This document shows, piece after piece, positions 3,455 to 63,115 of a stretch of 64,000 nt of DNA. A program made the position numbers and the translations under genes. Origin of the DNA: an uncultured Enterobacteriaceae bacterium. Lineage in GTDB: Bacteria; Myxococcota_A; UBA796; GCA-2862545. Numbering within the stretch: the stretch's first letter is position 1; each line of letters begins with the position of its first letter. The notes under the pieces are model-generated. The model was not told the origin of the DNA. It saw only the letters and a program-made list of their open reading frames with translations, and ran no database searches. The stretch spans positions 7,971 through 71,970 of the forward strand of contig CAYNFK010000006.1 in NCBI GenBank assembly GCA_964396405.1. Reading direction: 5' to 3'.

Positions 3455-3457
3455 CGG

Positions 3458-7101: not shown

Positions 7102-7153
7102 GCGCGCCTCGGCCCTTGAGAGGCCATGATACCCCAGCCACCGAGGACCCCCC

Positions 7154-7942: not shown

Positions 7943-8404
7943 GCGCGGATCGGTGGGCTCCGCAGGGGGCGCGTCGTCGACCGGGGTGAGCGCGACCTCG
8001 CGCAGCACCTCCTCAAACAGGTCGGCCTCGACGCTCCGCCCGACCGGGCAGGCCACCGAGCGCTTGGGGCCCACCACCATCAGGTGCTCGCCCACGCGAT
8101 CGATCGTCGCGCCCCGCAGAGGCACGGACGCCGTCTCCACGCCGCCATCCCAGCGGGTGAGCTCACCGTCCACCACGAGGCAGCCACTGTGCGCGCCGTC
8201 GTGCGGGTGCCAGATCTGGATCTCCACCCCTTCGGCGACGATGCCGGCGGCCACAAGCTCGTCGAGCGCCTGACGGTCGCGCACCATCAGCGCCACCGAC
8301 CCCACCACACCGAGCAGGCCGAGCACACCGCCGCCGAGCAAGAGGATCGCAAACAGGGCAGCGCCGGGGCCGTAGCCGCGGTCGGGTGGGGCGCGCAGGG
8401 TCAT
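7877..8404 (-). CDS. hypothetical membrane-anchored protein
   Basis: 175-aa ORF with an N-terminal TM segment (ALFAILLLGGGVLGLLGVVGSVALMV). It makes a 66-nt convergent overlap with the GT2 gene. Confidence 0.45.
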   Translation of the reverse strand: MTLRAPPDRGYGPGAALFAILLLGGGVLGLLGVVGSVALMVRDRQALDELVAAGIVAEGVEIQIWHPHDGAHSGCLVVDGELTRWDGGVETASVPLRGATIDRVGEHLMVVGPKRSVACPVGRSVEADLFEEVLREVALTPVDDAPPAEPTDPRLRRALGLDDAAEQPPVAQPDP

Positions 8405-37757: not shown

Positions 37758-39151
37758 CGGCACGGGTCTCCCAGGAGCGAACCGTCGTCCTACTTCAAAC
37801 CGGCGATTTACGCGAGTACATCGTCGTCAGGGTCGAGAACTCTGGGACGAACGATGAGATCTTCAAGGAGTACTGGGAGTTCTACATCACGGACTCCGTG
37901 AACCGCTACCCGTACGCCTCCGATGGCGTCCTCGGTGAGGCCCCGCCACACTACAAGTGGGGGCCGCTCCACGGAAGGTTCGTCATCGCAGTCCAGCTTC
38001 GCGATCGCACGCTGCGACCGGGCGAGGTCCGCTACATCGGGGCCGGCGCGCTCCGGGTAAAGCGCGCGACGGTCGACGGGGTCGCGATCAGTCTCGACGA
38101 TCCCTGCTTGGAGTTCGACGGGCCAGAGCAGTCGTCCGTGCACGTGGTGTTCCCATTTCGTGCAGAGGGGTGGGCGATCACCACAAAGGACATGACCGCA
38201 TGTACTCACGTGGCATCTACGTCGTTCATCCCAAGTCCGGACGAACCGCGGCACGTCCAGGTACGCGGGACTCACCCCCGCCGGCCGCTGTGGACCGAAC
38301 TCGTCAAGCTCGATGTCCGGGTCGCCATGCTTCGGGCCGTCGTCGCGGCCGACGCGTGCGGAGAGGATGTGGCCATCCTCGCGCCTGCGCACGACGACCC
38401 GCTTCGCTCGCAGTGGGACAGCCTGTTAAGCGAAATCCGCTTCAATTCCGCCGAACCCGTCGCGACCCGTCAAGCCAGTTACCGGGCCCACCTTCGGCGA
38501 CTGCAAGACAGCCGTCCAGCGTTGGCGGCAAGGATGCCGTCAATGCCCGATACCGTCAGCGTGCTCTACCTCGCCTCCAGCCCCGTCGACGCGACGACGC
38601 TCGGGACCGACGAGGAAGCGCGAGAGATTCGTGACGAGCTCCAACGCGCCGAACTTCGCGACAAGTTCGAGTTCGTCGTCCGTCAAGCCGTCCGCGCCGA
38701 GGACCTGCAACGCCACGTCCTACGCGAAAGGCCCGTCGTGCTCCACTTCAGCGGCCACGGAGCAGAAGACGAAGGGCTGGTCTTCGAGGATCGCGACCGC
38801 CTCGGCGTAATTGTGTCCGCCGGTGCACTCGCCCGGTTGCTAAAAGCGGCCGAAGGTCCGACCCGCGTCGTGCTGTTGAACGCCTGTTACTCGGCCCATC
38901 ACGTCGAGGAGCTCGCCAAGGCCGTCGACGTGGTCATCGCAATGACTCGCGTCGTGCAGGATCATGCGGCAGTTCGCTTCGCGGCAGCGTTCTACCGAGC
39001 CCTCGCGTTCGGCAGTTCGGTGTCCGCAGCTTTCAATCTCGCGGTGAACGAGCTGGAGATACTCGGCATCACTGGTGAGACCGACGTTCCGTCGATGCAC
39101 ACGCGCGCAGGGGTCATCGCCAGCGACATCTTCCTCGCGCCACCGCGGTAG
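37754..39151 (+). CDS. protein with an unassigned N-terminal ~270 aa and a C-terminal CHAT (caspase-like) protease domain
   Basis: The C-terminal 190 aa reads SVLYLASSP...RPVVLHFSGHG (His), TRVVLLNACYS (Cys) and VVIAMTRVVQDHAAVRFAAAFYRALAFGSSVSAAF, the CHAT tail pattern. Confidence 0.8.
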   Translation: MTARVSQERTVVLLQTGDLREYIVVRVENSGTNDEIFKEYWEFYITDSVNRYPYASDGVLGEAPPHYKWGPLHGRFVIAVQLRDRTLRPGEVRYIGAGALRVKRATVDGVAISLDDPCLEFDGPEQSSVHVVFPFRAEGWAITTKDMTACTHVASTSFIPSPDEPRHVQVRGTHPRRPLWTELVKLDVRVAMLRAVVAADACGEDVAILAPAHDDPLRSQWDSLLSEIRFNSAEPVATRQASYRAHLRRLQDSRPALAARMPSMPDTVSVLYLASSPVDATTLGTDEEAREIRDELQRAELRDKFEFVVRQAVRAEDLQRHVLRERPVVLHFSGHGAEDEGLVFEDRDRLGVIVSAGALARLLKAAEGPTRVVLLNACYSAHHVEELAKAVDVVIAMTRVVQDHAAVRFAAAFYRALAFGSSVSAAFNLAVNELEILGITGETDVPSMHTRAGVIASDIFLAPPR

Positions 39152-39174
39152 CAATCGCGCCGTCTGAACTCGAC

Positions 39175-39219
39175 CGCGGCCCGGCGTGCATGCACCCGCC
39201 CACGTTGGAAGGGCCCGCG
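39175..39219. terminator. GC-rich hairpin between convergent CHAT and RT genes (candidate bidirectional terminator)
   Basis: CGCGGCCC...GGGCCCGCG forms a stem with one bulge. It encloses the 10-bp palindrome GTGCATGCAC. There is no U-tract. Confidence 0.3.
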
Positions 39220-39240
39220 AGAACGATCTAGAAGCCTGAC

Positions 39241-40854
39241 CTACGAGTACGGGTCCGTCCCGCGCTCGCGTAGAGTCTCCGCGTTGATGCGGGGCGGCGC
39301 AGGGACGAACTGCGCATCCGCGAGGTGCTCGATGAAGCCCACGAGTGTCTCACCCTCGAAGTCCTTCTTCTTGATGGTGCGGTACTCGGGTGTCCGTTCA
39401 GCCGATTGCAAGGCCTGAACCGCGATCCGACGGGCGCGGGTCACCATGTGCGAGGCGTCGGCGTTTACGTACCGCTTGATGCTGTGGTGGTCCGTGTAGT
39501 CGCCGCACTGTGCCAAATAGAGCGTCGCCCCCATAACCTCTGGGTCGTGGCCGTCTCCCGAAAGCAGCTGGTGCGCCCGTCTCGTGATCGCAGCGCTCTG
39601 AACCTTCATCTGCGTTGCGAGCAGCCAAAGCTGGTAGTTCTGCCAAGGGTAGACGAAGATCGGGTCCCCGGTCAGCATCTTCTCCAGTTCCCGACACTCG
39701 CGGTCCCCGAACGGCATCACCGACAGGAAGCGGCACAGCTTCTCCGACGCCTCCGGCCACCGACGAAGGGCACCCAACGCAAGCAACGGCAACTCAGCAA
39801 TTAACGGGTGCGTCACATCCTTGTACTGCATGATGTCGACGATGCGGCCCAAGCTAAACCTGAACACCGATTCCCCGACGCCGCCCTGAAGAAGCAGCTC
39901 GTGCATCTTGTCGAAGAGCAAGGCAGCGGCCCGCTCGACCGTACCACGATTTTTCGCGCCGTTGAGCAGGCCCTCCACGGTCTCGAAGAACGGATCCGGC
40001 AGGTCATGCACCTTTTTCATCCCGTCGTCGTCGGGGCCGACAATTACCGTCTTCGAGGCGTTCACATCCAGCCCGATATTGCGCAGCTCGTCGATGAGCG
40101 CGATCATCGCCCGGCGAGCAGTTGCCTCGTCGGGCGCCACGATTTTGAAGTCGTCGACCCATCGAAAGCAGGTGAATCCCATCCGCTCCATCTTTTTGTC
40201 GATGGAGTCGAGGAAGACATTACCAAGAAAAGAGCTGGGGGCCATATTCTGCGGCAGGCCGACATCGCCCTGCGGCGCCCATACCTTTAGGCAGTCGAAC
40301 AATGATTTCAGGGTCGCATCAATCGAGGGCGTCATCTCGCCTACAAGAATGCCGCGAAGGCGATCCGAAAGGGTCCGAAATCGGAGGTTCGAAAAGTAGG
40401 AGGTGATGTCCGTCTTGACCAGCCAGCTCGCCGGCTCCTTGACAAGCAGATCCCGCACGTCACCGTTGAACTTGTTCCACTGCGCGGGGAACTGGCGAAG
40501 GAACATCCAGGGCGAGTCCGGCGAGCGCAGCCGGTACCCGTATGAACTCGGACTGAGCTTCGCGTCGACCAGCGGGGCGAGCTTGTCCACGAGGGCTTGG
40601 TACACGATGCGGTCGATGGGCCGCATCTGAACAGCGTGCCTCAACGTGTAGTTCGACTTGGGGATGTACAGATCCACAGCGGGCAACGGAATAAAGCTGT
40701 CCGCCGCCTTCTCAAGACGAAGCACCGTGTCGTCCATCGATGCGAAGAGGTCGGCACACCCCAAGGGGTCCGGCCAGAAGTCGTCGTGGATGTCGTTCTT
40801 GTACCGCTTGAGCGCGAGCTTCCAGTCAAGCTCAAGTGCCGTTAGGTCGATCAC
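39241..40854 (-). CDS. reverse transcriptase, defence-associated (UG/Abi/DRT-like) type with a long helical C-terminal extension
   Basis: GTG start. RT motifs present: IPKSNYTLRHAVQMRPIDRIVYQAL; LVKTDITSYFSNL; GLPQNMAPSSFLGNVFLDSID; FRWVDDFKIV; GLDVNASKTVIV. About 250 aa of helical sequence follows. Confidence 0.9.
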   Translation of the reverse strand: MIDLTALELDWKLALKRYKNDIHDDFWPDPLGCADLFASMDDTVLRLEKAADSFIPLPAVDLYIPKSNYTLRHAVQMRPIDRIVYQALVDKLAPLVDAKLSPSSYGYRLRSPDSPWMFLRQFPAQWNKFNGDVRDLLVKEPASWLVKTDITSYFSNLRFRTLSDRLRGILVGEMTPSIDATLKSLFDCLKVWAPQGDVGLPQNMAPSSFLGNVFLDSIDKKMERMGFTCFRWVDDFKIVAPDEATARRAMIALIDELRNIGLDVNASKTVIVGPDDDGMKKVHDLPDPFFETVEGLLNGAKNRGTVERAAALLFDKMHELLLQGGVGESVFRFSLGRIVDIMQYKDVTHPLIAELPLLALGALRRWPEASEKLCRFLSVMPFGDRECRELEKMLTGDPIFVYPWQNYQLWLLATQMKVQSAAITRRAHQLLSGDGHDPEVMGATLYLAQCGDYTDHHSIKRYVNADASHMVTRARRIAVQALQSAERTPEYRTIKKKDFEGETLVGFIEHLADAQFVPAPPRINAETLRERGTDPYS

Positions 40855-40985
40855 ACACCCCCGGGGAAGCGGGTATCACGGCGCGCCAGAACGAGGACAG
40901 CCGCGGCACACCTGCACGTGGAAGCGGCCCCACCGCGCCGCACCATCGCCCCGGGCTTGCCACCCCGCTCCGCCATGAACGCCCC

Positions 40986-41822
40986 CTACGGACACCCCAC
41001 CACCACCTCCAGGTCATACGTCACACACCCCACCTCGGTCGTGTACACCACAAACCACACCCGCCGGTCCACCGTGCGCGTGTTGGTGAACGACACGGTC
41101 TCCACGTCCGCGGTGGTGTCGGACATGTCGAGCATCAGGTAGCTGCCGGCCTCATGCACCGACAGATCGAGGTCCTTGCTCGCATGGGCGAACGTAATCT
41201 CGGCGGTGAAGCTGCACCCCGCAGGCACCACCTGATCGAAATAGTCGACGTCGCCCGGCGCATGCTCGAGGGCGGCGTAGGTCTGAGCCACGCCGTTGGG
41301 TGGCACCGCCAACGGGGTGCCCGTCAGCCAGGTGTTGTTGAGCTCGAACGCATCTGAGCCGCAGATGCCGGTGAAGCCGCCCCCATCGGTGTCGCCGTCC
41401 GTGTCCGCGACGGTGCCGGTGTCGACCTCGGTGTCCACGTCCGTGTCGCCGTCCGTGTCCGTGTGCGTCTCGACCTCCGTGTCCACGTCGGTGTCGGGGA
41501 GCGCATCGGTCTCCGGGTCGGTGTCCGTCTCGACCTCGGTGTCCGTCTCCAGGTCGGTGTCCGACTCCACGTCCGTGTCCGACTCGACCTCGGTGTCCGA
41601 CTCCACCTCGGTGTCCGACTCCACGTCCGTGTCCGACTCCACGTCCGTGTCCGTGTCGCCCGGGGTGTCCGACTCGGTCCCGCTCGGATCGTCGGTCTCG
41701 ACCTCGGTGTCCGTGGCCTCCGCCTCGGTGTCGTCCTTCAGCCGGATCGACCTCGTAGTGGTGCAGGCCGCAAGCAGGCAGACGGCGAGCACGCAGCTTC
41801 GGGACGTCGACGTGGCGCGCAA
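40986..41822 (-). CDS. lipoprotein with a DT/ES-rich repeat linker and a C-terminal pre-peptidase-C-terminal-like beta domain
   Basis: ORF 40986..41942. The probable start is the TTG at about 41822 after GAGG, giving LRATSTSRSCVLAVCLLAAC (lipobox). (DTDVES/DTEVES)n repeats are present. Confidence 0.65.
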   Translation of the reverse strand: MRATSTSRSCVLAVCLLAACTTTRSIRLKDDTEAEATDTEVETDDPSGTESDTPGDTDTDVESDTDVESDTEVESDTEVESDTDVESDTDLETDTEVETDTDPETDALPDTDVDTEVETHTDTDGDTDVDTEVDTGTVADTDGDTDGGGFTGICGSDAFELNNTWLTGTPLAVPPNGVAQTYAALEHAPGDVDYFDQVVPAGCSFTAEITFAHASKDLDLSVHEAGSYLMLDMSDTTADVETVSFTNTRTVDRRVWFVVYTTEVGCVTYDLEVVVGCP

Positions 41823-41957
41823 GGGGACCTCGGCGGGGTGGTGAGCCCTAACGGATGGGCGCGTCGCAGACCCCACCACCCTGGACGGCCCGTGTTTGCA
41901 GATCGTGCCGCCGCCGCACCCAGGGTGCGTCACCGCGCTCACTGTCGGAGGTTCTTC

Positions 41958-42218
41958 ATGCGCTCGACCGTTGTTCTTCTGTGCTCGCTGCTCGCAGTCC
42001 CTGCCGCTGCGCAGGAGGTCGACGCCGAGTCGGGCCGCACGATCAAGTACAAGGAGCGCACCGAGCTCACGTTCGAGAACCTCGACGTGGAGGCCACCAC
42101 CACGAAGCCTGCGTTCGTGTACCTTGCAGAGGCCGGCCGCACCGCCTTCAACCCGCTGCTGCGTCTTCGCGAGAGCTTCGAGCCCGAGCTGCGCGCCAGT
42201 TTGGCCGAGGTGAAGTGA
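41958..42218 (+). CDS. small secreted hypothetical protein (86 aa)
   Basis: Start at MRSTVVLLCSLLAVPAAAQE (signal peptide) within ORF 41463..42218. Confidence 0.55.
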   Translation: MRSTVVLLCSLLAVPAAAQEVDAESGRTIKYKERTELTFENLDVEATTTKPAFVYLAEAGRTAFNPLLRLRESFEPELRASLAEVK

Positions 42219-47429: not shown

Positions 47430-49499
47430 TCACCGGCTGAGGTCGGCCGCACGGGTGACCAGCTCCGCCAGCTCGGCCGTCTCCTTGCCGCCCTGCGCCG
47501 CGAGCGACGACGACCACGCGCGCAGGTCCTGCCAGGCGATGCGCTCGGCCAGCGGCCCACCCCGCAGCTTCTCGGTGAACGCCGCCACGGTGACGGCGAG
47601 CCGAATGCCGCGGGGCGCATTCGCCAAGGAAGGTGCCGGGTGAGACACCGACATCGGCCACGCGTGCTCGCTGGCGGGAGCGTCGGCGCCGGGTGCCTTC
47701 CACCGCAGGCGCACCGTGCCCAGGCTGGGCGCGCCGGGCCCCGTGAGCGACACCTCGTAGACGGCCGTCACGTGGTGGCCCAGGCCGATCTCCCCGGCGT
47801 CCACAGCGTCGTTGCGGAAGTCCCGGTCGGCGATGGCTCGGTTCTCGTAGCCGAGCAGCCGGTACCAGCTCACCGCCGACGGATCCCAGTCCACCTGGAT
47901 CTTCACGTCGCGGGCCAGCACCTCGGCCGTTGCCGCGAACCGCTCCACGAACACCCGCTGCGCCTCGTCCTGGCTGTCCAGGTAGACGTACTGGCCGTCC
48001 CCCTCGTCGGCGAGGCGCTCCATCATCGTGTCGCGGTAGTTGCCATCCCCTACGCCCACCGTGGTGAGGGCGATGCCCTGCTTCGCGTAGTAGCGAATGG
48101 ACTCCACCAGCGGGCCGTGGGTGGTCGCGCCCACGTTGGCGTCGCCATCGGACAGTAGGATGACGCGGTGCGTGCCCGACTGCCGCAGACGCGACTCGGC
48201 CAGCGTGTAGGCCGCCTGAATGCCCGCCCCCATGGCCGTGCTGCCGCCCGCACGCAGGTCTTCGATCGCGCGGAGGATCTGCGACCGACCCTCGATGCCG
48301 GTCGGCTGGAGCACGACGCCCGCGCTCCCCGCGTAGACCACGATCGCCACGGTGTCGCCATCGGAGAGCTGCTCCACCAGCATCCGGAGCCCCGCCTGCA
48401 CCATGTCGATCTTGTCGGCGGACTGCATCGAGCCCGAGGTGTCGACCAGGAACGTGAGATGAACGGGCGGGCGGGACCCGGAAGGTCGGCGCCCTTGCAC
48501 ACCCACCCGCACCAGTCGGGTGTTGGGGTCCCACGGCGTGACCACCGCCTCAGTGACCACCTCGAAGGGTCGCGAGGCCGGCGGCGACGGGTCGCTGTAG
48601 GTGAACCAGTTCAGCGCTTCCTCGGTGCGAACGGCGGCCGCGGGCGGGAGGTAGCCCTCGCGCAGCTTGCGCCGCACGATGGTCCAGGAGCCGGTGTCCA
48701 CATCCGCGGCAAAGGTCGACACGGGATCGTCGGCCGTGATCGTGCGGCCGTGAACGCCCGGATGGGTGTAGGTCTCCGTGTTGACCACGTTCGGACGCTC
48801 ACCCGCCGTGACCCTCGGCGACACACTCACCGCCTCCTGGTAGCTCCGGCCGCCGGGGATGCGACGGAGAAAGTCTGCCGTGAGCACCGTGCCCACGTCG
48901 TTCGCATGGTTCGCGTCCGACCCGCTGGCGACGCTTGGATCGGGGGTGGGATCCTCGACGTAGCCGAGCGACACGAGCTCGCGCATGACGTCCTTCTCTA
49001 CGGGGGCGTCCCCGTCGACGTCTGCGACGGACACGACGGCATCGGACTCCTCGGCGGGCGCGGGAGCCGCAGCCGCGCTCGCGCCGCGGATGATGATGAT
49101 GGTGCGGTCTGGGGCGGTCGACTCCAACTCCCGCGGGGGAACCGCGCTGGCGGACGGGGGGGTCTCCACCGGCCACCGCTCGCGCGCCGCCCGGTCCGGA
49201 GCCCTCTCGCCCTCGACCTCCGCCCGGAGCACTGAGTTTTCTTCCAACACCGCGTAGGTGGGCACTCCGACGGCCACCACCAAAGCGGCGGCCGCTACAA
49301 GGCCCCGACCCCAGGCCCGCCCGGTCGTGCGGGGCAGGCCGAGCGCACGCGGTGCCTCCACCGGCTCCAGCACGGCCGGCACGAAGCGGGCGTCGAAAGC
49401 GGCGCGGAGCTCGGGGTCCTGGTCGATGGCGGCGGCGAGCTCATCGGACAGGTCACCTTCCTCGGGGTTCCAGGCGCGGAGCTGTTCCAGGCGGGTCAT
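47430..49499 (-). CDS. anti-sigma factor fused to a periplasmic vWA (YfbK-like) domain
   Basis: ATGA-coupled to the ECF sigma gene and carries a single TM segment. vWA MIDAS motif HLTFLVDTSGSM and LLSDGDANVG. Confidence 0.85.
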   Translation of the reverse strand: MTRLEQLRAWNPEEGDLSDELAAAIDQDPELRAAFDARFVPAVLEPVEAPRALGLPRTTGRAWGRGLVAAAALVVAVGVPTYAVLEENSVLRAEVEGERAPDRAARERWPVETPPSASAVPPRELESTAPDRTIIIIRGASAAAAPAPAEESDAVVSVADVDGDAPVEKDVMRELVSLGYVEDPTPDPSVASGSDANHANDVGTVLTADFLRRIPGGRSYQEAVSVSPRVTAGERPNVVNTETYTHPGVHGRTITADDPVSTFAADVDTGSWTIVRRKLREGYLPPAAAVRTEEALNWFTYSDPSPPASRPFEVVTEAVVTPWDPNTRLVRVGVQGRRPSGSRPPVHLTFLVDTSGSMQSADKIDMVQAGLRMLVEQLSDGDTVAIVVYAGSAGVVLQPTGIEGRSQILRAIEDLRAGGSTAMGAGIQAAYTLAESRLRQSGTHRVILLSDGDANVGATTHGPLVESIRYYAKQGIALTTVGVGDGNYRDTMMERLADEGDGQYVYLDSQDEAQRVFVERFAATAEVLARDVKIQVDWDPSAVSWYRLLGYENRAIADRDFRNDAVDAGEIGLGHHVTAVYEVSLTGPGAPSLGTVRLRWKAPGADAPASEHAWPMSVSHPAPSLANAPRGIRLAVTVAAFTEKLRGGPLAERIAWQDLRAWSSSLAAQGGKETAELAELVTRAADLSR

Positions 49500-50041
49500 G
49501 CGAGCACCCCTTCTTCGGTAGCGAGGTCATGAAGCAGATCGCGAAGCGCGAGGCGACCGCGCGCGACACGGGACGCGACGGTGCCGATGGGTGCGTCGAG
49601 CACCGTCGCCGCCTCGGCAAAGGAGAGACCTTGGCCGTCCACCAGAAGGACGGCCTGACGCTGCGGCTCAGGGAGCGTGGCCAGCGCAGCGTCCAAGCCT
49701 TCGCGAAGTCGGCTTCGCTCCAGCGCCGCCGCCGGCCCGTCCCGAACGGCGCTGAACGCCAGCACCTTGCCGTCGTCGGACACCTCGTGGTGATGGTGGG
49801 CGCGCGCACGGTCGTTGAGGAAGGTGGTGTAGATGATGCGGTGCATCCAGCCCCGAAACGCCGACGGCTCGTCCAGCTGGTGGCGGCGCGCGAGCGCCTT
49901 CGACACGGCGCTCTGCACCAGGTCGTCCGCCGCCGCGGCGTCGCGTTCGAGGCGGAAGGCGTAGCGCCACAGGGAAGGCAGGGCGTCCTGGAGCTGCTGC
50001 TCCAAGTCCTGGCGTGGTCGTGTGAGAGGCCAGACTGCCAT
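49496..50041 (-). CDS. ECF-type RNA polymerase sigma factor
   Basis: Region 2 (DLVQSAVSKAL..FRGWMHRIIYTTFLN) and region 4 (LPEPQRQAVLLVDGQGLSFAEAATVLDAPIGTVASRVARGR). Confidence 0.9.
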   Translation of the reverse strand: MAVWPLTRPRQDLEQQLQDALPSLWRYAFRLERDAAAADDLVQSAVSKALARRHQLDEPSAFRGWMHRIIYTTFLNDRARAHHHHEVSDDGKVLAFSAVRDGPAAALERSRLREGLDAALATLPEPQRQAVLLVDGQGLSFAEAATVLDAPIGTVASRVARGRLALRDLLHDLATEEGVLA

Positions 50042-53118: not shown

Positions 53119-56100
53119 TCACCTGGGCACGCATTGGACGGCCACGCGATCGATGTCGTCCAGCCGGCCTGGGGTCGTCCTCCTCATCACCTGCAGCAGT
53201 GGCTCGACCTGGCGCTCACGGACGACGAGCGAGACGAGGTGGGACGCCACCGCCGCTGGCGTGGCGATCCCACCAGGGAGTTGGTCGTCTAGACGCGGGC
53301 CCGGCAGGTCCCTCACGAGCCGACGCATCTGTGCGTCGCTGTAGAGGTCGAGGAGCAGCCGTTCGAGTTCTTTAACCCCGCCTTCGGGGACGGTCCGGAC
53401 GCCCTCCCGGATGACCTTCAGAACCTCCGACGGTCCCGGTGGACGCCACGTCCCATGGCTGGCCCTCTCCGTGCCCACCATGCGCTTCCAGGGGACAGCG
53501 TGCCAGTCGGGGAACATGCGCTCCAACCTTGCAAGCTCGTCGACCGCGCGCCACCCGAGCGTACGCGCGAGCTCCACGAGCGTGTCGAGGCACCGATCAC
53601 GCTCGTTGCGCAGCGCGTCTTCGGGACCGAACCAATGCGACCCGTCACGGCGAGGATCCTCGCGCGGCGGGTAGTGTCGCGCGAGGAGCTCCGCGAATCG
53701 GCCGACCACCACGGCATCCGACCACGACGCCGACAAGTTCGGCTCGTACACGTGCGTATGGGCCCCCAATCGTTCGAGGACGGCGCCGGCCGCCCCGGGG
53801 TGCTCGTCGACGAACTCGAGCACGCGGGCTGCGTCCTCGGCGCTGCCCCGCAGCAGGGCGAATGCGGAGACGACCGCCATCTGGAAGTCTGGACTGTCGG
53901 GCTGGCCGGCCAGCGGAGGCAACCGTGCCTGGGCCCACGCTCGCGCGGTCGCGACGCCGCGGCCGAGCAATCCCGGCAAGAGGATCTCCGCCTGCTTCGG
54001 ATCGGATGTCTCCACCAGAGCCTCCGTCAAGACGCGCTCGACGGCGGGCCCCCAGCGGCGCTCGAAGGCGACCAGCGGAAGGTGACCCGACTCGCCGCGC
54101 AGCATCGCGACCCAGGTCCGGGCGACGGCTTCGGGAACCCGGTCCACGAGGAACTCCAGCAGCTCACTGTGTTCCTTGTGCTCGCGGAACATACTGCCGT
54201 GATCGACCACGGCCGGTGCCCAGGTCGCGAGCTTGTCGTCGTGGAGTTCGCCGAGTTTCCCGCTGCTCCAAAGCAGGCGCATCGCCCCCAAGCCCATGAA
54301 CGCGTGCGCCACCTCGCGGTGGTTCTGCCTGCCCAGCCATGCCTCGGTGCGTGGGGTGTCGCGGAGCAAGAATGACCGTGCCGCGTCCACGACCCGGCTC
54401 TGCTCGTCGCCGTCGAGGGTTCCCCAGCCGAAGGACTTGTCCGGGGAGACGTGCCAGTCGACGTCCCAGCCGCGGTCCGGGGGCGCCCTGTGGAGATGGT
54501 GCAGCAACGACCACCACTTGTCGGATTCGCCGTCGTGAGCGGCCGCCAGCGCGCTTCGAAGCCGGACCGCAAGCGGCGGATCGAGCTTCGGTGGCTCGCG
54601 CTCCGGTTGCGCCCACCGCGTGGCAAGCTCGGCGTCGCGACGCGCGATCTCCGCGACGATCTGGTCTGGCGACTCCCCCAGCTTACCGAGCTCGACCCCA
54701 ACCTCTCGAAGCTCCGGGTGCTTCGCTGCTCCATGCAGCAGTCGCTCCACGGACGCTGCGTCACCTCGCGGACTCCACCTGATGAGGGCGTCTGCCAGCC
54801 ACGTGCGCTCGCGCGGATCGGTCGCCGTGTCGAGGAGCGTCCACGCGGGGTCGACCAGCTCGGCAGCGACTACGCCGAGGCGCTCGGGCACTCGGTAGGC
54901 GAGCGTGCTCGGGCCGCCCTCCGGGCCCGCCATGGCGAACAGCGCTCGAACGAAGGCGGGAGTCCGAGCACGCAGACGGAGCTCATCGACGAGCTCGGCC
55001 GACGGAGAGAACGACACGTAACTGTCGAGGTGCGCGCGAAGGATCTCCTTCAGGATCGCAGGCTGGTCGAGCAGCCCGAGTGCTCGTGCCCGCTCGGCGA
55101 GCGCCTCCAGCACCTGAGATGCCATCGGAAAGCGGTCGACTCCGCCGGAGCCGAGCCGCGACTTGCCCGCAGCCCAGCGCAGAGCACGCGGAAGAATCCC
55201 GGGCTCGATCGCCCTGGCCATCTCGAACAGGAAGCCCTGATACGCTCCGAAGTGCATGCGATGATGCGGCGAGCGGAGGTGCTCGAACAGCGCCTCGGAC
55301 GACAGGTGATCCGGCCAAAGCACCCGCAGTGCAAGCCCGAGCAGGTTGTCGTCCGGGTCGAGGTTGCGACCGAAAGCGAGAACGTCCTTGCAGAGCGCAA
55401 CGACTTCGCGGGTGCCGTCATCGTTGAGGAGGTCGTCGTCGACCATCTCTCGCAGGGCGCGTAGCGCATGGACGGCCGCCATGCGGTTCGCATCTGCCGA
55501 CCAGGGCTCTCGGACGATGGGAGCCAAGGCGGAGACACACTCGACGGCGCCCGTCGCGCCTGCGAGTCGGGCCGCCGACCGGACCGCTACGGGGCGGTGG
55601 GCTGTCGGATCGAGCCACCGGATGATCTGGCGGCCGATGCCGCGATGCACGAGGTTACCCAGCCGATCGTCGAGTTCGAGGAGGTCATCCGCGAACTCTC
55701 CACGCTCGAGGCCGCAGAGCCACGCTTCGACGAGGCGTTCCCGATCCTGATCTGAGCGAGACCCGGGATCGGCGTCGATGAGCGCGCGCGGGTCCTTGCT
55801 GGCCAGCCAGGACCAGGCATCCGGGTACAGGTCCGCGATCCACCCGACCGTGCCGCGAAGCGTGGCCACGGTTCGCCTCTCGGGATCGTGCGGGTGGACG
55901 AGCAGGGCATCCAGCGTCGCCGTGTCGGGCCGGTAGGTCGCCAGATGTCGCGCGGCGAGGAACTCCTCGTAGGCCCTGCTCGACCAGACGACGACATCTC
56001 CGAAAGGCGTGAAAGGTCCCACCGCGACCGTCTCGCGAAGGGCAGCGAGCGTGGCCTGCACCCGAGAGGGTCCCTCCTCGGAACCCTCCCACGGACCGAC

Positions 56101-57039
56101 GAGGTCTTCGAGCCGAGTCGTGATGTCCTCGGGAGCCTCCACGCTTCCGGACGCGACGAATGGGCGCCGTGAGAAGGTGGTCGCAGCGGCGATCCGACCG
56201 GCGAGCGCCATCCGCTGATGCTCGGTCAACGTACGCTTGTCGCGAGCGTCCTCGCCGTGCCCGCGGAACACGGCCACGAGGTGGTGCTCGAACAGAGACG
56301 CCCGGGAGGTCGGCAGCGCGCCGAATCCCTTCTCGACGTCGAGAAGCATGCGCAGGGTCAGCGGACGGGAGGCCAGCGGCTCGGCACGGTGGCGATCTAC
56401 CCAATCGAGGAGCGCGCCGGCATCCCACGACCTTTCGGCAGCGGCAAGTGCCACGTCCTCGCGCTCCAGCGGCAGCAGCGACAGCACGGTCGCTCCTCCG
56501 TCTCCGGCGATGCCGGAGAGCACGCGGGAGAGCCCGCTCGTCCAGGCGTGCGCCCGACCAGCCGTGCGGATCCGGAGTCTCGCGAGATGGTCTTGCGAGG
56601 ATTCCACGAACGCCTGGATCTCCGCGGCGAGCCGGCGGAGCTCGCCCGGGAACTCATCGAGGCCGTCGAGGAACAACTCCAGGACTCCGCTCGCAGAGCG
56701 CCACTGTTCGACGTCGGGGTGCGCGAACCACCGCGCCGCGAGTCCTGAGGGGGACTGAAGTGCGAGGTTGATCCGGCAGGTCGAGGCTCCCGCAGCTTCG
56801 CGGCTATCGGCCCAGGTCGCCAGAGCACGGCTCTTCCCGATCCCGGCCTCGCCGAGCAACACCACCACACGGGCGTCGTGCCAGTGGTCGAGGGTCCTTG
56901 CGGTCGCGGGACGTCGCTCTCCACGGCGCGAACTGTCGAGATCGCCGGCCGCGATCGGCGGCAGGAAGCCAGCCACGGGCACGAACGTGCCGACCGGCGC
57001 AGCGTGTCGGGGGCGGGGGAGGTGGAGTTCGGCCATCAC
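53119..57039 (-). CDS. NACHT-type STAND NTPase with a long helical/HEAT-like repeat region and a C-terminal effector-associated (EAD1-like) domain
   Basis: Walker A VVLLGEAGIGKSRAL and Walker B LELFLDGLDEF. About 1000 aa of helical sequence follows. The last ~90 aa align with the N-terminus of the 58662..59417 protein. Confidence 0.85.
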   Translation of the reverse strand: MMAELHLPRPRHAAPVGTFVPVAGFLPPIAAGDLDSSRRGERRPATARTLDHWHDARVVVLLGEAGIGKSRALATWADSREAAGASTCRINLALQSPSGLAARWFAHPDVEQWRSASGVLELFLDGLDEFPGELRRLAAEIQAFVESSQDHLARLRIRTAGRAHAWTSGLSRVLSGIAGDGGATVLSLLPLEREDVALAAAERSWDAGALLDWVDRHRAEPLASRPLTLRMLLDVEKGFGALPTSRASLFEHHLVAVFRGHGEDARDKRTLTEHQRMALAGRIAAATTFSRRPFVASGSVEAPEDITTRLEDLVGPWEGSEEGPSRVQATLAALRETVAVGPFTPFGDVVVWSSRAYEEFLAARHLATYRPDTATLDALLVHPHDPERRTVATLRGTVGWIADLYPDAWSWLASKDPRALIDADPGSRSDQDRERLVEAWLCGLERGEFADDLLELDDRLGNLVHRGIGRQIIRWLDPTAHRPVAVRSAARLAGATGAVECVSALAPIVREPWSADANRMAAVHALRALREMVDDDLLNDDGTREVVALCKDVLAFGRNLDPDDNLLGLALRVLWPDHLSSEALFEHLRSPHHRMHFGAYQGFLFEMARAIEPGILPRALRWAAGKSRLGSGGVDRFPMASQVLEALAERARALGLLDQPAILKEILRAHLDSYVSFSPSAELVDELRLRARTPAFVRALFAMAGPEGGPSTLAYRVPERLGVVAAELVDPAWTLLDTATDPRERTWLADALIRWSPRGDAASVERLLHGAAKHPELREVGVELGKLGESPDQIVAEIARRDAELATRWAQPEREPPKLDPPLAVRLRSALAAAHDGESDKWWSLLHHLHRAPPDRGWDVDWHVSPDKSFGWGTLDGDEQSRVVDAARSFLLRDTPRTEAWLGRQNHREVAHAFMGLGAMRLLWSSGKLGELHDDKLATWAPAVVDHGSMFREHKEHSELLEFLVDRVPEAVARTWVAMLRGESGHLPLVAFERRWGPAVERVLTEALVETSDPKQAEILLPGLLGRGVATARAWAQARLPPLAGQPDSPDFQMAVVSAFALLRGSAEDAARVLEFVDEHPGAAGAVLERLGAHTHVYEPNLSASWSDAVVVGRFAELLARHYPPREDPRRDGSHWFGPEDALRNERDRCLDTLVELARTLGWRAVDELARLERMFPDWHAVPWKRMVGTERASHGTWRPPGPSEVLKVIREGVRTVPEGGVKELERLLLDLYSDAQMRRLVRDLPGPRLDDQLPGGIATPAAVASHLVSLVVRERQVEPLLQVMRRTTPGRLDDIDRVAVQCVPR

Positions 57040-58586
57040 AAGGGCTCCGCGGGAGGGTCACCGAAGCAGAGAAACGGTATTGCACCCTCGCCTGCCGCCA
57101 GAGCAAGGCGGCGACAGGTGTCCCATGCGACCCCGGGCCGGACACCCCTCCCCGCGAGGCGCGCCCAGAAGGCCTCCAGCCCACGGACATCCGAAAGGGG
57201 CGCGAGGACCACGACGGGAACATCGCGACTGAGCAGGCAGGCGGCTTGACGGAGGGCGGGCGGCGCGGTCCCGTCGATGCGGAGCACGAAGACCTGAACG
57301 CCGGCGCGACGGACGTAGAGTTCGATCTGGTCGAACACAAGGTCCAGGTCGCCAGAGCGCAGTCGGCCCTCTTGGTCCAGGGACGCCGAGACCTGCACGG
57401 CCCACGGCGGAGCGTCGACGGGTCTGAAGTCCGCGACGACCCTCGTCTCTGTGACGTTCGAAGGAACGAGCAGCGGGGGCGAACCACCGATCACATCGAG
57501 CGAACCCGGCCCCGAACCGACGGGCCGAGCCCCGTCCAGCCACCGTCGCGGGTACCGGACGGAACGGCGGACCTTGACCTGCTCCCACGGCGCAGCGAGC
57601 AGCTCCACGGCGGCTGGATGGGTGGTGCCCACCATGCGGACTTCGACCGGATGGACGATGACATCGGGGTATCCGAGGGACGTCGGCTTGGCGTTTCCCG
57701 CAGAAGCACCGGCCGTTTCCCACCGCCGGATCCCGCGATCGTCTACGCGGAATCGGTCCGGCACAAGCCCGGTCGTCACAGAGGCCACCGCCGGAAGATC
57801 GAGGAGCACGCCGCGAGCCTCCCGACAGCGGTGTCCGGTGAGCCAAGCCCCCCGGCACAACCAGGTCGCCAGCCCGTCGGGTGGGGGAAGACTCCCGTCC
57901 TCGCCGAGAACGGCCGTGAGGCGCGGAACGATTGGCCCGTCACCGTCCGCGAGTTCGTTCGGGAGCTTGAAGCGCTCTACGAGTTGCTCCAACGCCCCCT
58001 CCAGCAGACCAGCACCACGCAGTTCACGGATGAGGACGTCAACCAGGTCCCAGTCTGGGCTGGCTACGACGAGATCGGGGTCGTCCGCGTGGTCCTCCGA
58101 ACGGACGAGCACGGGCACCGGCACCGCGTCGAATCCCGCGACCGGGGCCGCCAGCCGCGCCACGATCGTCGCGTCCCGCCCACGGAGGTCGCGCGCCGCA
58201 AAAGCCGTCGCCCAGGGTGGCAGCAAGCTCCGGACGGACCCGGTCCCGTCCAGGACCACGTGCACGTAACGCTCGGGCTCGTGGAGCTGTCCGTCTCGGA
58301 TCCACAGGCCCTCGCCGTAGATGCCGGTGCTGCGGTCTCCAATGGCAGCGGAGTAGCGCACCGTGACGGCGACCACGACCAAGTCAGCGTCCAACATCGC
58401 GCCCCACTGCCACTCCGCGAGCGATGCCCCCGAAGGCAGGTCCCGCTCGTCCCACACGACGCGCACGTAGCGCTCGAGCTCGCGGACCAGCCACGCAACC
58501 GGCTCGTCCACGCCGCCATCGGGCGTCCGCTTGTGGGAGACGAACACCCTCCGGGATGTCGTCCCGGCGACCACCCCGTCCATCAC
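57036..58586 (-). CDS. TIR-domain protein with an unassigned ~370-aa C-terminal region
   Basis: The N-terminus RVFVSHKRTPDGGVDEPVAWLVRELERYVRVVWDERDLPSGASL...ADLVVVAVT is TIR-like. The stop overlaps the STAND gene start (ATGA). Confidence 0.75.
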   Translation of the reverse strand: MMDGVVAGTTSRRVFVSHKRTPDGGVDEPVAWLVRELERYVRVVWDERDLPSGASLAEWQWGAMLDADLVVVAVTVRYSAAIGDRSTGIYGEGLWIRDGQLHEPERYVHVVLDGTGSVRSLLPPWATAFAARDLRGRDATIVARLAAPVAGFDAVPVPVLVRSEDHADDPDLVVASPDWDLVDVLIRELRGAGLLEGALEQLVERFKLPNELADGDGPIVPRLTAVLGEDGSLPPPDGLATWLCRGAWLTGHRCREARGVLLDLPAVASVTTGLVPDRFRVDDRGIRRWETAGASAGNAKPTSLGYPDVIVHPVEVRMVGTTHPAAVELLAAPWEQVKVRRSVRYPRRWLDGARPVGSGPGSLDVIGGSPPLLVPSNVTETRVVADFRPVDAPPWAVQVSASLDQEGRLRSGDLDLVFDQIELYVRRAGVQVFVLRIDGTAPPALRQAACLLSRDVPVVVLAPLSDVRGLEAFWARLAGRGVRPGVAWDTCRRLALAAGEGAIPFLCFGDPPAEPL

Positions 58587-58627
58587 GCACCCGCTCGGCG
58601 GGCGAGATATTCGACTTCGACCCGGTC

Positions 58628-58637
58628 GTCACGTGAC
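58628..58637. promoter_or_regulatory. perfect 10-bp palindrome GTCACGTGAC in the 75-bp divergent TIR/TIR intergenic region
   Basis: Read directly from the sequence. Confidence 0.25.
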
Positions 58638-58661
58638 TAGGAGAATGGAGCCCGGAGACGC

Positions 58662-59417
58662 ATGCAGCGAGCCGACGTCCGCCAGCTCTCCGACTTGCTC
58701 CGCACGCTCCTCGACGAGCACAAGCTGCGCAGGATCGCGCGCGAGCTTCCCGAAGGCGACGAACTCGCCCACTGGCTTCCAGGGGCCGGCGTGTCGTTCG
58801 TCCAGCTCGCCGATGCCCTGGCCGACGAGGCGGTCCGCCGCGGGCGCGCCCGCGCGCTCTTGGCGCTCCTCCGGAACCAGCTCCCTGGCCGTGCTGCCGA
58901 GATCGATGCGGTCGTGGCGAGGTTCGATATCGCCCAAGTGACCGAGAGCGCGCCTCGAACTACCGAGGAGCCCGAGACCTGGGACGTGTTCTTGGCGCAT
59001 CCGAAGGAGCTGGAGAGCCGTGCGGCGCGTCTGTACGACGCGCTCGTCGCTCAGCCCCACGGCCGGCGCGTGTTCCTCGACAAGCGCTGCATCGCACCCG
59101 GTGACGCGTGGCTGGACCGGATCCGCGGTGCGCTTCGCCGCACCCGAGTCTTCGCCGTCCTCATCGGTCCCACGAGCGACACTGCGTGGTTCCAGTCCGA
59201 GGAGATCCTCACGGCGATCGAGGTCACGCGCCGCGAACCCGACGACCACAAGATCGTCCCCGTCCTCGTCGACGGTGCCGAGCTCTCGTTCCCCCTGCTG
59301 CAACGGCAAGCGATCGGCTGGAGTGACAGTGCCGACGCCTCCGCCGTGGTCTCCGGCCTCGTTCGAGCCGTTGCCAACGTGGAGGCCAAGGCGGCGAGCC
59401 GTCCGGGGCCGGTGTGA
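58662..59417 (+). CDS. EAD1-like helical domain + TIR domain protein
   Basis: TIR region: WDVFLAHPKELESRAARLYDALVAQPHGRRVFLDKRCIAPGDAWLDRIRGAL..VFAVLIGP..AWFQSEEI. The N-terminal 90 aa is helical with ELP..LPG..PGR landmarks. Confidence 0.8.
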   Translation: MQRADVRQLSDLLRTLLDEHKLRRIARELPEGDELAHWLPGAGVSFVQLADALADEAVRRGRARALLALLRNQLPGRAAEIDAVVARFDIAQVTESAPRTTEEPETWDVFLAHPKELESRAARLYDALVAQPHGRRVFLDKRCIAPGDAWLDRIRGALRRTRVFAVLIGPTSDTAWFQSEEILTAIEVTRREPDDHKIVPVLVDGAELSFPLLQRQAIGWSDSADASAVVSGLVRAVANVEAKAASRPGPV

Positions 59418-59454: not shown

Positions 59455-60588
59455 CTACGGCGACGCTTCGGACGAGCGGGATTCCTCCCCGTGCACCTCG
59501 GTGCGGATCTCCGGGAACGCCGCCAGCGCAGCCTTCGCCACGGCCGCCTCCCGATCCGCCTCGGTCACCTGCCGGTAGAACCGGAGCATCACCACGACCG
59601 AGTGCCCCGTCAGGCTCGCCGCCGTCGCCGGGTCCACACCCGCCCGCAGCATTCGATCCACCACCATCCGCCGAAGCCCGTGCGGCGTGAACGCCTTCAC
59701 GCCCGCTCGGCGACACGCGCGGGCCAGCCGCGACCGCACTGCCTGATCCCGTGGCAGTCCCAGCGTGGGGAATGCTGGCGATTCGTCCGACCCCGCGCGC
59801 GCCAGGACTTCATGGCCAATCACCTCGGGGAGCGGGAACCTGCGGGTGCCCGTCTTGCCCGTCAGACGAAGCTGGACGCGATTCCCGTCCACCTCGATGT
59901 CGCACCGGCGGAGGTTCGCGATCTCCGCGACTCGCGCCCCCGTGACCGCGAGAAGTTGGATCGCAAGGTGCGACTCGCCGTTGGTGGCACCAAGAACCCT
60001 GGCCACGTCGACCGGGGTGGGCGTGTGGTGGTTCAAGACGTAGCCCTCCACCTTCACCACCACCCTGGGGAACGGACGCGCAGGCACCATCACGCCTTGG
60101 CTGCCCCACCGCCACGCCATCGACCACACCCTGAACTCTTGGACGACAACTCTGGGTGAGGCACGCTCACGAAGTCTGTGGTCGCGGTACCGCTCTGCGA
60201 TGTCTCGGTCCATCCGGTGAACCTCAACTTCGCGGAGCCACGCCACAAGGTGCCGGCAGGCCTTCTCGTAGTGGTCCACCGTGCGGGGGGACAGGTCCGC
60301 ACGCTCTGCTTGCCGCGCGTACCAGCGGTCGAACAGCTCCCCCAGCGTCGTCACGGGACCCCTGGCGACGGTGGACTCCGGGGCTGGGAGGCCTCGCACC
60401 ACCCTGTCCGCGAGCATCACCTGCGCCTGCTCACGCGTGGCCCAACCCGACCACACCAGATCCCGGATCCCCTTGCGACGCGCCCGCCAATACCACTGCG
60501 TTCCCGCCGCGCTCTCTCGCGACCGGTTCATCGGTGACGCACGAATGGGACCAATCTCGACGGACTTCGGCCGCAACGCTTTGGTCAT
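59455..60588 (-). CDS. int: tyrosine-type site-specific integrase
   Basis: Start at MTKALRP within ORF 59455..60747. Catalytic landmarks are LLAVTGARVAEI (Arg), FTPHGLRRMVV (H-x-x-R) and TGHSVVVMLRFYRQV (His, Tyr). Confidence 0.9.
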   Translation of the reverse strand: MTKALRPKSVEIGPIRASPMNRSRESAAGTQWYWRARRKGIRDLVWSGWATREQAQVMLADRVVRGLPAPESTVARGPVTTLGELFDRWYARQAERADLSPRTVDHYEKACRHLVAWLREVEVHRMDRDIAERYRDHRLRERASPRVVVQEFRVWSMAWRWGSQGVMVPARPFPRVVVKVEGYVLNHHTPTPVDVARVLGATNGESHLAIQLLAVTGARVAEIANLRRCDIEVDGNRVQLRLTGKTGTRRFPLPEVIGHEVLARAGSDESPAFPTLGLPRDQAVRSRLARACRRAGVKAFTPHGLRRMVVDRMLRAGVDPATAASLTGHSVVVMLRFYRQVTEADREAAVAKAALAAFPEIRTEVHGEESRSSEASP

Positions 60589-61121
60589 CGCGCACCCCGC
60601 GCCAGGCCTGGACCGCCCAACGGACGGAGCGGAACCGCACCTGTGGCTCTGACGCGCCCCGTCCGCACCTTCGCCTCGGTGGCATCTGCCAAAGCCTCCA
60701 GGTCGATGCGAAGGGCTCGAAGCCAGTCGCCGAAGGGAGCCATCCACGCGCGGCCAATTCTCCGCGCCGTCTCTGGCCGAACCGCTCGAACGTCCCCCTG
60801 GCGGAGACCGAAAACGTCGGCCACGTCCTCAGTGCTGCACAGCGTTTCGGGCGTGGCGAACAGCGCAGCCCGTGCCTGAAGGCGGCGCAGCCGGTCGAGT
60901 TGAACGCGAGGGGCGGCCGGCACAACGTCGTCTTCGTCTCCACCGAACACCGGCGAGCACGGAGCACGGCGGCCCGGCCGGTCGAGGCGCAGGCGCCGTA
61001 CGGCTCGGAGGTCCGACCCAACGGGCGGCACGCGCCAGACGTAGACGACCCGACCGACCCTTAGGACCCCAAGATGTCGCTGAGGTCCGCTCTGGAAGGC
61101 GAAGCAGGTGGTGGTGCTCAT
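60585..61121 (-). CDS. hypothetical protein with an excisionase/MerR-like HTH segment
   Basis: Start at MSTTTCF. It has ATGA overlaps with both the upstream gene and the integrase. The LCSTEDVADVFGLRQGDVRAVRPETARR segment is HTH-like. Confidence 0.5.
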   Translation of the reverse strand: MSTTTCFAFQSGPQRHLGVLRVGRVVYVWRVPPVGSDLRAVRRLRLDRPGRRAPCSPVFGGDEDDVVPAAPRVQLDRLRRLQARAALFATPETLCSTEDVADVFGLRQGDVRAVRPETARRIGRAWMAPFGDWLRALRIDLEALADATEAKVRTGRVRATGAVPLRPLGGPGLARGAR

Positions 61122-62611: not shown

Positions 62612-63115
62612 CTACGCGACCAAGCCGTCACGGTAGCTGGTCCTGCCTGCGACCCTCGCCGCGGTCAACACCTGATGCCGATTGTCGGCCGCACGCAACG
62701 ACACGTGCACCCACCCAGAGTTCGGCACCCCCGGCGTGTAGAACTCCAGGATGAGCTGATCGAACGCGACGTGGTCGCGAATCCACGTGGCGACGTCGGC
62801 GTTCGCAACGCCCGTGATCTCCAGGTCGGCCGCCTCGCCGGCAAGATGCTGCGACGTCGCCGACCCCTTCACCGCCCGATTGACCGCGGGGCTTCGATAG
62901 CCACTGTTGATGTGCACCGGCCGGCCGAAGTGGACGCGAACGGGCTCAAGCACCCCAAGGCACAGTCGTTCGAGTCGACGAACCACCTCCAACGACCCGG
63001 GCCAGTTGTTGGCCCTCACGTTCGTCCGGCACAGCTCGACCAACGTGAAGTGGTTGCTCAGGCGCAGGTCCGCCCTCTGATCGAGCGCGGAGTGGATCTG
63101 ATCATCGGTCAGCAT
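62612..63115 (-). CDS. peptidase M15A (zinc D-Ala-D-Ala carboxypeptidase / endolysin-like)
   Basis: INSGYRSPAVNRAVKGSATSQHLAGEAADL (SxHxxGxAxD motif) and WVHVS. Confidence 0.8.
   Translation of the reverse strand: MLTDDQIHSALDQRADLRLSNHFTLVELCRTNVRANNWPGSLEVVRRLERLCLGVLEPVRVHFGRPVHINSGYRSPAVNRAVKGSATSQHLAGEAADLEITGVANADVATWIRDHVAFDQLILEFYTPGVPNSGWVHVSLRAADNRHQVLTAARVAGRTSYRDGLVA

Follow-up and report, generated by a model that had tools for sequence, protein, structure and literature searches.

The N terminus of a TIR effector protein and the C terminus of a divergently encoded, NACHT-like STAND NTPase are homologous copies of one small, nonenzymatic, all-helical module. Orthologous loci retain the sensor together with both adaptors but have a PNP in place of the TIR effector. 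Probably, the adaptors at the NTPase tail and at the TIR-protein head dock to one another and so hold the TIR domain on the sensor, whose oligomerization then switches on NAD+ cleavage.

Both proteins are encoded in the window, the whole 64-kb stretch of DNA that was analyzed. The adaptor-TIR gene (positions 58662-59417, plus strand) is an ORF of 251 aa plus stop, with GGAG located 7 nt upstream of its ATG. It encodes the N-terminal adaptor copy (residues 3-88; 58668..58925, plus strand; delimited by the family HMM and AF2), an 18-residue linker (residues 89-106; 58926..58979, plus strand; AF2) and the TIR effector domain (residues 107-245; 58980..59396, plus strand; Pfam TIR_2 and Foldseek). 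A divergent intergenic spacer of 78 bp, read from the sequence (58584..58661), separates this gene from the NTPase operon on the minus strand. The operon comprises an upstream gene for a 515-aa protein with a weak N-terminal TIR-like region (57036-58583, minus strand) and the NTPase gene (53119-57036/57039, minus strand; 1305/1306 aa); the stop of the former overlaps the ATG of the latter by 1 nt. The second adaptor copy, which was delimited by the family HMM, lies at the NTPase C terminus (residues 1219-1302; 53131..53382, minus strand). Since the NTPase is encoded on the minus strand, its tail is read as the reverse complement of 53122-53400; this interval and the interval given for the TIR-protein N terminus (58662-58940) had been assigned correctly in the preliminary description. 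All three frames have a high third-position GC, as in genuine genes of a window with 70% GC. A sigma-70 consensus scan of the 78-bp spacer gave no match, but it is uninformative at 70% GC, and promoter and terminator scans in general carry no information in this GC-rich DNA.

The homology of the two adaptor copies was supported by four kinds of statistics. BLASTP with compositional adjustment aligned residues 6-84 of the TIR protein with residues 1222-1299 of the NTPase (28/79 identical, 35%; 1 gap; E = 9e-8), and no further significant BLASTP alignment between the two proteins was detected outside the adaptor segments. The Smith-Waterman score of the adaptor segments was 108, while 5000 shuffles gave a mean of 27.1 (sd, 5.1) and a maximum of 66 (z = 16), so that none of the 5000 reached the score of the adaptor pair; the remaining 85-aa windows of the same NTPase scored at most 37. 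Furthermore, a family HMM was built from 93 domains obtained as profile-search matches, with both window copies left out. Among the window ORFs it recovered the TIR copy with an E value of 1.6e-25 and the NTPase copy with an E value of 3.5e-24, and since nothing else in the six-frame translation was better than E = 0.2, the 64-kb window contains two adaptor copies only. Finally, hhalign of five NTPase tails (window and four orthologs) against three heads (window TIR protein and two PNP proteins) gave a probability of 98.6% and an E value of 6.7e-16 over 85 columns. The homology had been proposed in the preliminary description from a hand alignment with a single indel. BLASTP returned the same alignment with its one gap, the profile-profile comparison bore the proposal out, and the similarity stayed significant under the composition correction, which was one way in which it could have turned out to be an artifact.

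L, R and A are abundant in both segments and the pairwise identity is about one-third, as would be seen if chance or composition alone (Leu/Arg/Ala-rich helices in DNA of 70% GC) had created the similarity. The probability of this explanation, as well as that of a functionless recent local duplication, is practically negligible. Chance and composition were rejected, being already refuted by the BLASTP, shuffle, profile and hhalign statistics. A recent duplication is excluded because the copies have diverged and both of their lineages are kept at orthologous loci, as described below.

The adaptor domain comprises approximately 85 aa. AF2, provided with a 95-sequence alignment, predicted a six-helix bundle (pLDDT 94, pTM 0.84), in agreement with the helical module that had been suggested from the sequence. 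In the adaptor of the TIR protein, the predicted helices span residues 2-16, 19-28, 32-38, 46-59, 63-73 and 75-91. Across the family, the nearly invariant positions hold structural residues (L, R, P and I), and the conserved motifs are LRR, LPG and RPxR..EID.

The family is widespread. An exhaustive search of 1.84 billion representatives with a two-segment profile yielded 320 proteins at E ≤ 1e-3. Word-indexed searches returned no match with the isolated TIR-protein N-terminal domain and one protein with the 95-sequence alignment, both of which reflect the limit of the word index. The adaptor copies were terminal in 141/168 cases. Among 125 representative adaptor proteins, the partner domains were TIR_2 (19), TIR (9), EAD5 (6) and CHAT (3); further partners were protein kinases, SAVED, PNP_UDP_1, SIR2, calcineurin-like phosphoesterase, FGE-sulfatase, pentapeptide repeats and AAA_16, and STAND modules were also found among the fusion partners. 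Nine representative clusters had precisely the adaptor-TIR layout at a length of about 250 aa, and 14 of the 150 family representatives consisted of the adaptor only. No viral relative of the adaptor was detected by a scan of viral contigs or a fold search of BFVD.

The arrangement in the window resembles that of the effector-associated domains (EADs), to whose EAD1 type the module had been likened. According to Kaur et al. 2020 (PMC7159879), a core component carries one EAD copy at one of its ends, and another copy is fused to an end of an enzymatic effector or signaling protein, which is often encoded by the adjacent gene. PMC7159879 and PMC8195603 describe this principle and propose that the coupling is homotypic. 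In line with it, the copies in the window are located at the termini of the NTPase and the TIR effector, and those of two orthologous loci, L003 and L004, at the termini of the NTPase and a PNP protein. The placement of the same adaptor on an effector and on an NTPase, as claimed in the preliminary description, is thus present in the window and recurs with PNP. In addition, with approximately 85 aa and six predicted helices, the adaptor has the properties of a small, nonenzymatic, all-alpha domain, and it stays constant while the effector varies (TIR in the window, PNP_UDP_1 in L003/L004). EADs would, however, be expected to have adjacent copies that are mutual closest relatives, which was not observed in the window, L003 or L004.

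As to which EAD, Pfam gave a less specific answer. The NTPase tail matched VMAP-M0 (PF19916; 24.7 bits, E = 3.5e-5), EAD1 (PF19955; 19.5 bits, E = 1.3e-3) and EAD7 (PF19960; 17.3 bits, E = 4e-3), but did not reach the respective gathering cutoffs of 25.9, 24.2 and 32 bits, and no Pfam model matched the N-terminal adaptor of the TIR protein alone. At E ≤ 0.1, the 95 family segments matched EAD7 (27), EAD1 (11), EAD8 (3) and VMAP-M0 (2). The best E values among them were 4.2e-5 for EAD1 and 1.6e-4 for EAD7, and none of any model was below 2e-5. The sole family member to pass the EAD7 threshold was a protein with four copies (P0004), which scored 40.1 bits against the cutoff of 32. No EAD match at E ≤ 0.01 was obtained for P0001, P0005, P0006 and P0009, although these belong strongly to the family and each contain two to four copies in tandem. 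VMAP-M0 is expected in the middle of a vWA-MoxR associated protein; this placement was not found either, since the window domain lies at the end of a NACHT protein and lacks a flanking MoxR-vWA pair. Kaur et al. (PMC7159879) regard the helical EAD1/EAD7 group as interrelated and EAD1, EAD6 and EAD7 as all-alpha. Because EAD7, EAD1 and VMAP-M0 are the nearest models, yet all remain below threshold, the adaptor belongs to the EAD class with EAD7/EAD1 as its closest kin, and its family to the helical EAD1/EAD7 group. Of what had been suggested earlier, the class therefore held, while the label EAD1 is not established: EAD7 was matched by 27/95 segments versus 11/95 for EAD1, and on the window copies all matches were subthreshold. 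We conclude that the adaptor family is essentially uncaptured by the current Pfam EAD models.

We also looked for relatives of known structure. Sequence and profile searches of the PDB gave nothing relevant for the adaptor. Foldseek gave no PDB match at E ≤ 0.001 (best E, 2.1), with a library that reaches April 2026 and should include the bacterial CARD structures. The FADD/Fas DD, ankyrin-G DD, TNFR1 DD and RIG-I CARD2 were matched at chance level (E of 5-10; TM of 0.28-0.45). Neither the PDB sequence search nor Foldseek thus yielded a significant relative that would support membership in the Death fold; judged by the six predicted helices, such a fold is possible.

The NTPase is composed, in this order, of an N-terminal P-loop module, approximately 600 residues, and the C-terminal adaptor. 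Its Walker A (GEAGIGKS, residues 62-69) and Walker B (DGLDE, residues 124-128) motifs are invariant in six orthologs and agree with the NACHT-clade signature (GxxxxGK[ST] and D[GAS]hDE). Pfam detected NACHT faintly (11.4 bits), as it did AAA_16, and the ortholog P0153 bears the source name "NACHT domain-containing protein." The NCBIfam models EruA and HyoA matched at 94.5 and 76 bits (5e-27 and 1e-21), in the first ~600 residues only. With equivalog cutoffs of 1000 and 1200 bits, which the matches miss by a wide margin, the NTPase is not an EruA/HyoA ortholog. The ~600 residues between the match to the NTPase module and the adaptor had no family match.

In the 251-aa protein, the TIR domain was clearly recognized (TIR_2, 52 bits versus a cutoff of 28; E = 1.2e-13). 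Its model had 46 PDB matches in Foldseek at E ≤ 1e-3, all of them TIRs, with SARM1/TIR-1 as the best; other matches included AbTir (TMt 0.77), the SARM1 TIR (TMt 0.70-0.74) and the SPARTA TIRs. The putative catalytic Glu is Glu181, which is shared without exception by 10 adaptor-TIR proteins and is presumably equivalent to the catalytic Glu of SARM1 or AbTir. Thus, the adaptor-TIR protein is presumably a catalytically competent, NAD-cleaving TIR. In the AF2 model of the full-length protein, residues 91-101 had a pLDDT of ~40, as a disordered linker would, and the pTM of 0.60 indicates that the adaptor and the TIR are independently placed domains.

Conservation at orthologous loci supports the coupling of sensor and adaptor. 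All five NTPase orthologs (5/5), which are 42-44% identical over the full length, keep the C-terminal adaptor (E of 1e-13 to 1e-22). In L003 and L004, the gene directly upstream of the NTPase gene encodes an N-terminal adaptor (E of ~1e-24) followed by a C-terminal PNP_UDP_1 domain. These adaptor-PNP proteins are 639-653 aa long, and in L004 the gene overlaps the NTPase gene. Such an exchange of the effector with a constant adaptor is the central prediction of the EAD principle. Two further loci (L005/L006), on short contigs, harbor the NTPase ortholog without a partner. Among the matches listed, the more distant NTPase relatives (22-31% identity) had the adaptor in none of their loci. A profile search of metagenome contigs retrieved 17 loci, which are mostly shorter than 6 kb and are not usable as a pairing statistic. 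Two adjacent copies were present in only one unrelated locus among them (L035/L036), where they belong to an adaptor-CHAT and an adaptor-kinase protein.

The partner copies differ considerably from each other. Those of the window are 31-34% identical, and their mutual similarity ranks 77/94 and 60/94 among the family members; the identity within the cis pair is 33% in L003 and 25% in L004. The NTPase tails clustered together (44-59%), and so did the PNP heads (74%). Judged by these sequence comparisons, tails and heads are two old, separately evolving lineages. Moreover, the tail of the window NTPase is 26-32% identical to the tails of its orthologs, while the whole proteins are 42-44% identical, suggesting that this tail has diverged fast or has been replaced. 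As partner copies are not nearest relatives, any contact between them would be heterotypic within the adaptor family.

This divergence is also what might be seen if the two copies did not bind each other but a common third partner, for example the same protein of the host or of a phage, or a filament built from adaptor-only proteins. Indeed, each partner copy is as distant from the other as from family members unrelated to the locus, tails and heads belong to separate conserved lineages, and adaptor-only proteins exist. On the other hand, the adaptor has a great many unrelated effectors as fusion partners and is nearly always located at a terminus, its pairing with the same NTPase family persists across the change of effector, and the window, L003 and L004 were not seen to have a third conserved gene in common. 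We therefore consider a common third partner very unlikely.

Direct contact between NTPase tail and TIR head, which we prefer, would lead to the following mechanism. The C-terminal adaptor of the NTPase would dock the N-terminal adaptor of the TIR protein, so that the TIR enzyme would hang on the sensor via the flexible linker. When an invader is detected, the sensor would oligomerize through its NTPase module, and the oligomer would draw the tethered TIR domains together. TIR NADases require self-association for activity. Once active, the TIRs would degrade NAD+ or produce an NAD-derived signal, and abortive infection would follow. We infer the adaptor-adaptor contact, the oligomerization of the NTPase, the NADase activity and the role in defense by analogy, because the EAD literature, bNACHT biology and the analogous bacterial CARD-NLR systems point to such steps.

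The position of the adaptor on the sensor bears on how activation might occur. Twelve P-loop proteins with a length of 700 aa or more contain the adaptor; 9 have it upstream of the P-loop, and only the window NTPase, P0116 and P0014 (3/12) have it at the C terminus. With the adaptor mostly N-terminal elsewhere and here placed after ~600 residues, simple induced proximity at a NOD hub is less obvious. Alternatively, the adaptor contact could keep the TIR monomeric and inactive at the C-terminal end of the resting sensor, and activation would free the TIR or let it polymerize through its adaptor; the adaptor would then be an inhibitor or tether and not a clustering device. The far C-terminal location, being a minority arrangement, would suit such sequestration, and the adaptor-only proteins (14/150 representatives) would be possible competitors. 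However, in most P-loop members of the family the adaptor is N-terminal, as induced proximity expects, and the architecture data are compatible with both models. We regard sequestration followed by release as unlikely.

A related and rather unlikely variant is that sensor tail and effector head are not a usual homotypic EAD pair but a heterotypic "lock and key" pair, formed by two lineages of a Pfam-unmodeled sister family of EAD7/EAD1, with activation by release or repositioning. [quoted passage not shown] In addition, the TIR-like operon protein that lacks an adaptor may be a second component.

The preferred reading, tethering of the TIR protein by adaptor contact and activation by sensor oligomerization, has counterparts in several known systems. 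The EADs (Kaur, Burroughs, Iyer & Aravind 2020/2021) similarly are small, all-helical, noncatalytic modules shared by an NTPase core and an effector encoded next door. They likewise occur as terminal copies with variable effectors (TIR, PNP, CHAT, kinase, SIR2 and SAVED), and the recurrent weak Pfam matches of the adaptor family are to EAD7, EAD1, EAD8 and VMAP-M0 only. In contrast to EADs, the window copies are subthreshold, adjacent copies are not closest kin, and the copy of the core component is borne by a NACHT protein at its C terminus; furthermore, the adaptor of the window family is longer (~85 aa) than the EAD7 model (62). The window pair fits the described EAD principle, and the preliminary description had named the right kind of system.

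The NTPase also resembles the bNACHT proteins of Kibby et al. (EruA/HyoA) in its Walker B motif (D[GAS]hDE), in the ~600 unmatched downstream residues and in its partial EruA/HyoA matches. Kibby et al. described a bNACHT class with "hybrid" C termini that bear a small extra domain. The window NTPase differs in that it has no fused N-terminal effector, and a separate effector is presumed to dock at its C-terminal adaptor. A further parallel is LypABC of Caulobacter, in which CARD-like adaptors link effectors to NLR-like ATPases, with bacterial two-hybrid support (PMC13236601); bacterial CARD-like domains were also described in gasdermin defense (PMC10312443). In these CARD-NLR systems, as would be the case here, a helical-bundle adaptor of ~80 residues couples a separate effector to an NLR-like ATPase. 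The same adaptor logic as that proposed for the window pair applies to animal Death-fold adaptors, as in Apaf-1/caspase-9 and ASC. Unlike in the CARD-NLR systems, the window effector is a TIR and not a protease, and the adaptor has no significant Death-fold match.

In the EAD literature, we found no direct tests of paired-adaptor recruitment for helical EADs, and the idea rests almost wholly on comparative genomics. The locus is of moderate interest as an EAD7/EAD1-like family uncaptured by Pfam, with diverged partners and a C-terminal adaptor on a NACHT sensor. It is a compact test case, consisting of one NACHT sensor and a 251-aa adaptor-TIR protein with a clear linker, for which natural adaptor-PNP relatives exist. 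Because the locus is compact and the PNP relatives are natural, domain-swap, two-hybrid and structural tests would be straightforward. It allows one to ask whether binding is specific at ~30% identity and whether an effector can be activated from the C-terminal adaptor of a STAND protein. Moreover, as the EAD coverage of Pfam is poor, a better delimitation of the family would aid genome annotation.

The 515-aa operon protein has no adaptor detectable with the family HMM and no PDB relative, and it is not similar to the PNP proteins or the adaptor-TIR protein. Its gene was not found at the ortholog loci L003, L004, L005 and L006. At its N terminus, TIR_2 scored 24.6 bits, under the cutoff of 28. 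The presence of this second TIR-like protein without an adaptor at the same locus was counted against the docking reading. The same three-gene layout was present on two short Logan contigs, with identical products (the adaptor-TIR protein corresponds to P0002).

Paired adaptor copies were also detected outside the NTPase ortholog loci. In the metagenome locus L035, neighbouring genes (1415-2482 and 3076-5256) encode an adaptor-CHAT (caspase-like) protein and an adaptor-Ser/Thr kinase protein, and the same gene pair is present in a second metagenome locus, L036. These loci are a further case of paired adaptor-family copies on different enzymes. Furthermore, 14 of the 150 representative adaptor-family proteins, among them P0018, P0027, P0028 and P0032, are at most 140 aa long and are therefore adaptor-only. 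By analogy to CARD-only and pyrin-only proteins, they could act as regulators or decoys.

Two of the NTPase ortholog loci, L003 and L004, carry additional features beside the NTPase gene. Just upstream of the L003 ortholog, a 67-aa ORF fragment (4344-4544, plus strand) partially matches the adaptor over its first one or two helices (E = 1.5e-3; HMM positions 3-28), and this fragment may be the relic of an adaptor-effector gene that has since been lost. In L004, an AAA_21/AAA_15 (AbiEii/OLD-like) ATPase gene and a gene for a 218-aa protein (6361-8179, plus strand) are located immediately downstream of the NTPase ortholog, which suggests an adjoining defence system, i.e., a defence-island context.

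In the window, the NTPase gene is translationally coupled to a gene for a 515-aa protein (57036-58583, minus strand), which is not present in the NTPase ortholog loci. The N-terminus of this protein is TIR-like, with a subthreshold score of 24.6 bits, and about 400 further residues are uncharacterised. The protein contains no adaptor copy and is a second, untethered TIR-like component.

The immediate neighbour past the adaptor-TIR gene is a tyrosine recombinase gene (59455-60747, minus strand; Phage_integrase match, 2e-15), followed by a peptidase M15 endolysin-like gene (62612-63115, minus strand), 142 bp of which show 74% identity to endolysin genes of Caulobacter phages. Between 50 and 64 kb of the window, no tRNA genes were detected. 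The defence locus appears to lie at the margin of an integrative element or of a prophage remnant.

Elsewhere in the window, a gene pair (47430-50041, minus strand) encodes an ECF sigma factor and then a vWA/YfbK_C protein; it has no relation to the adaptor finding. A local GC dip at 38001-42000 (approximately 0.645 versus approximately 0.70 in the rest of the window) may mark another foreign insert.
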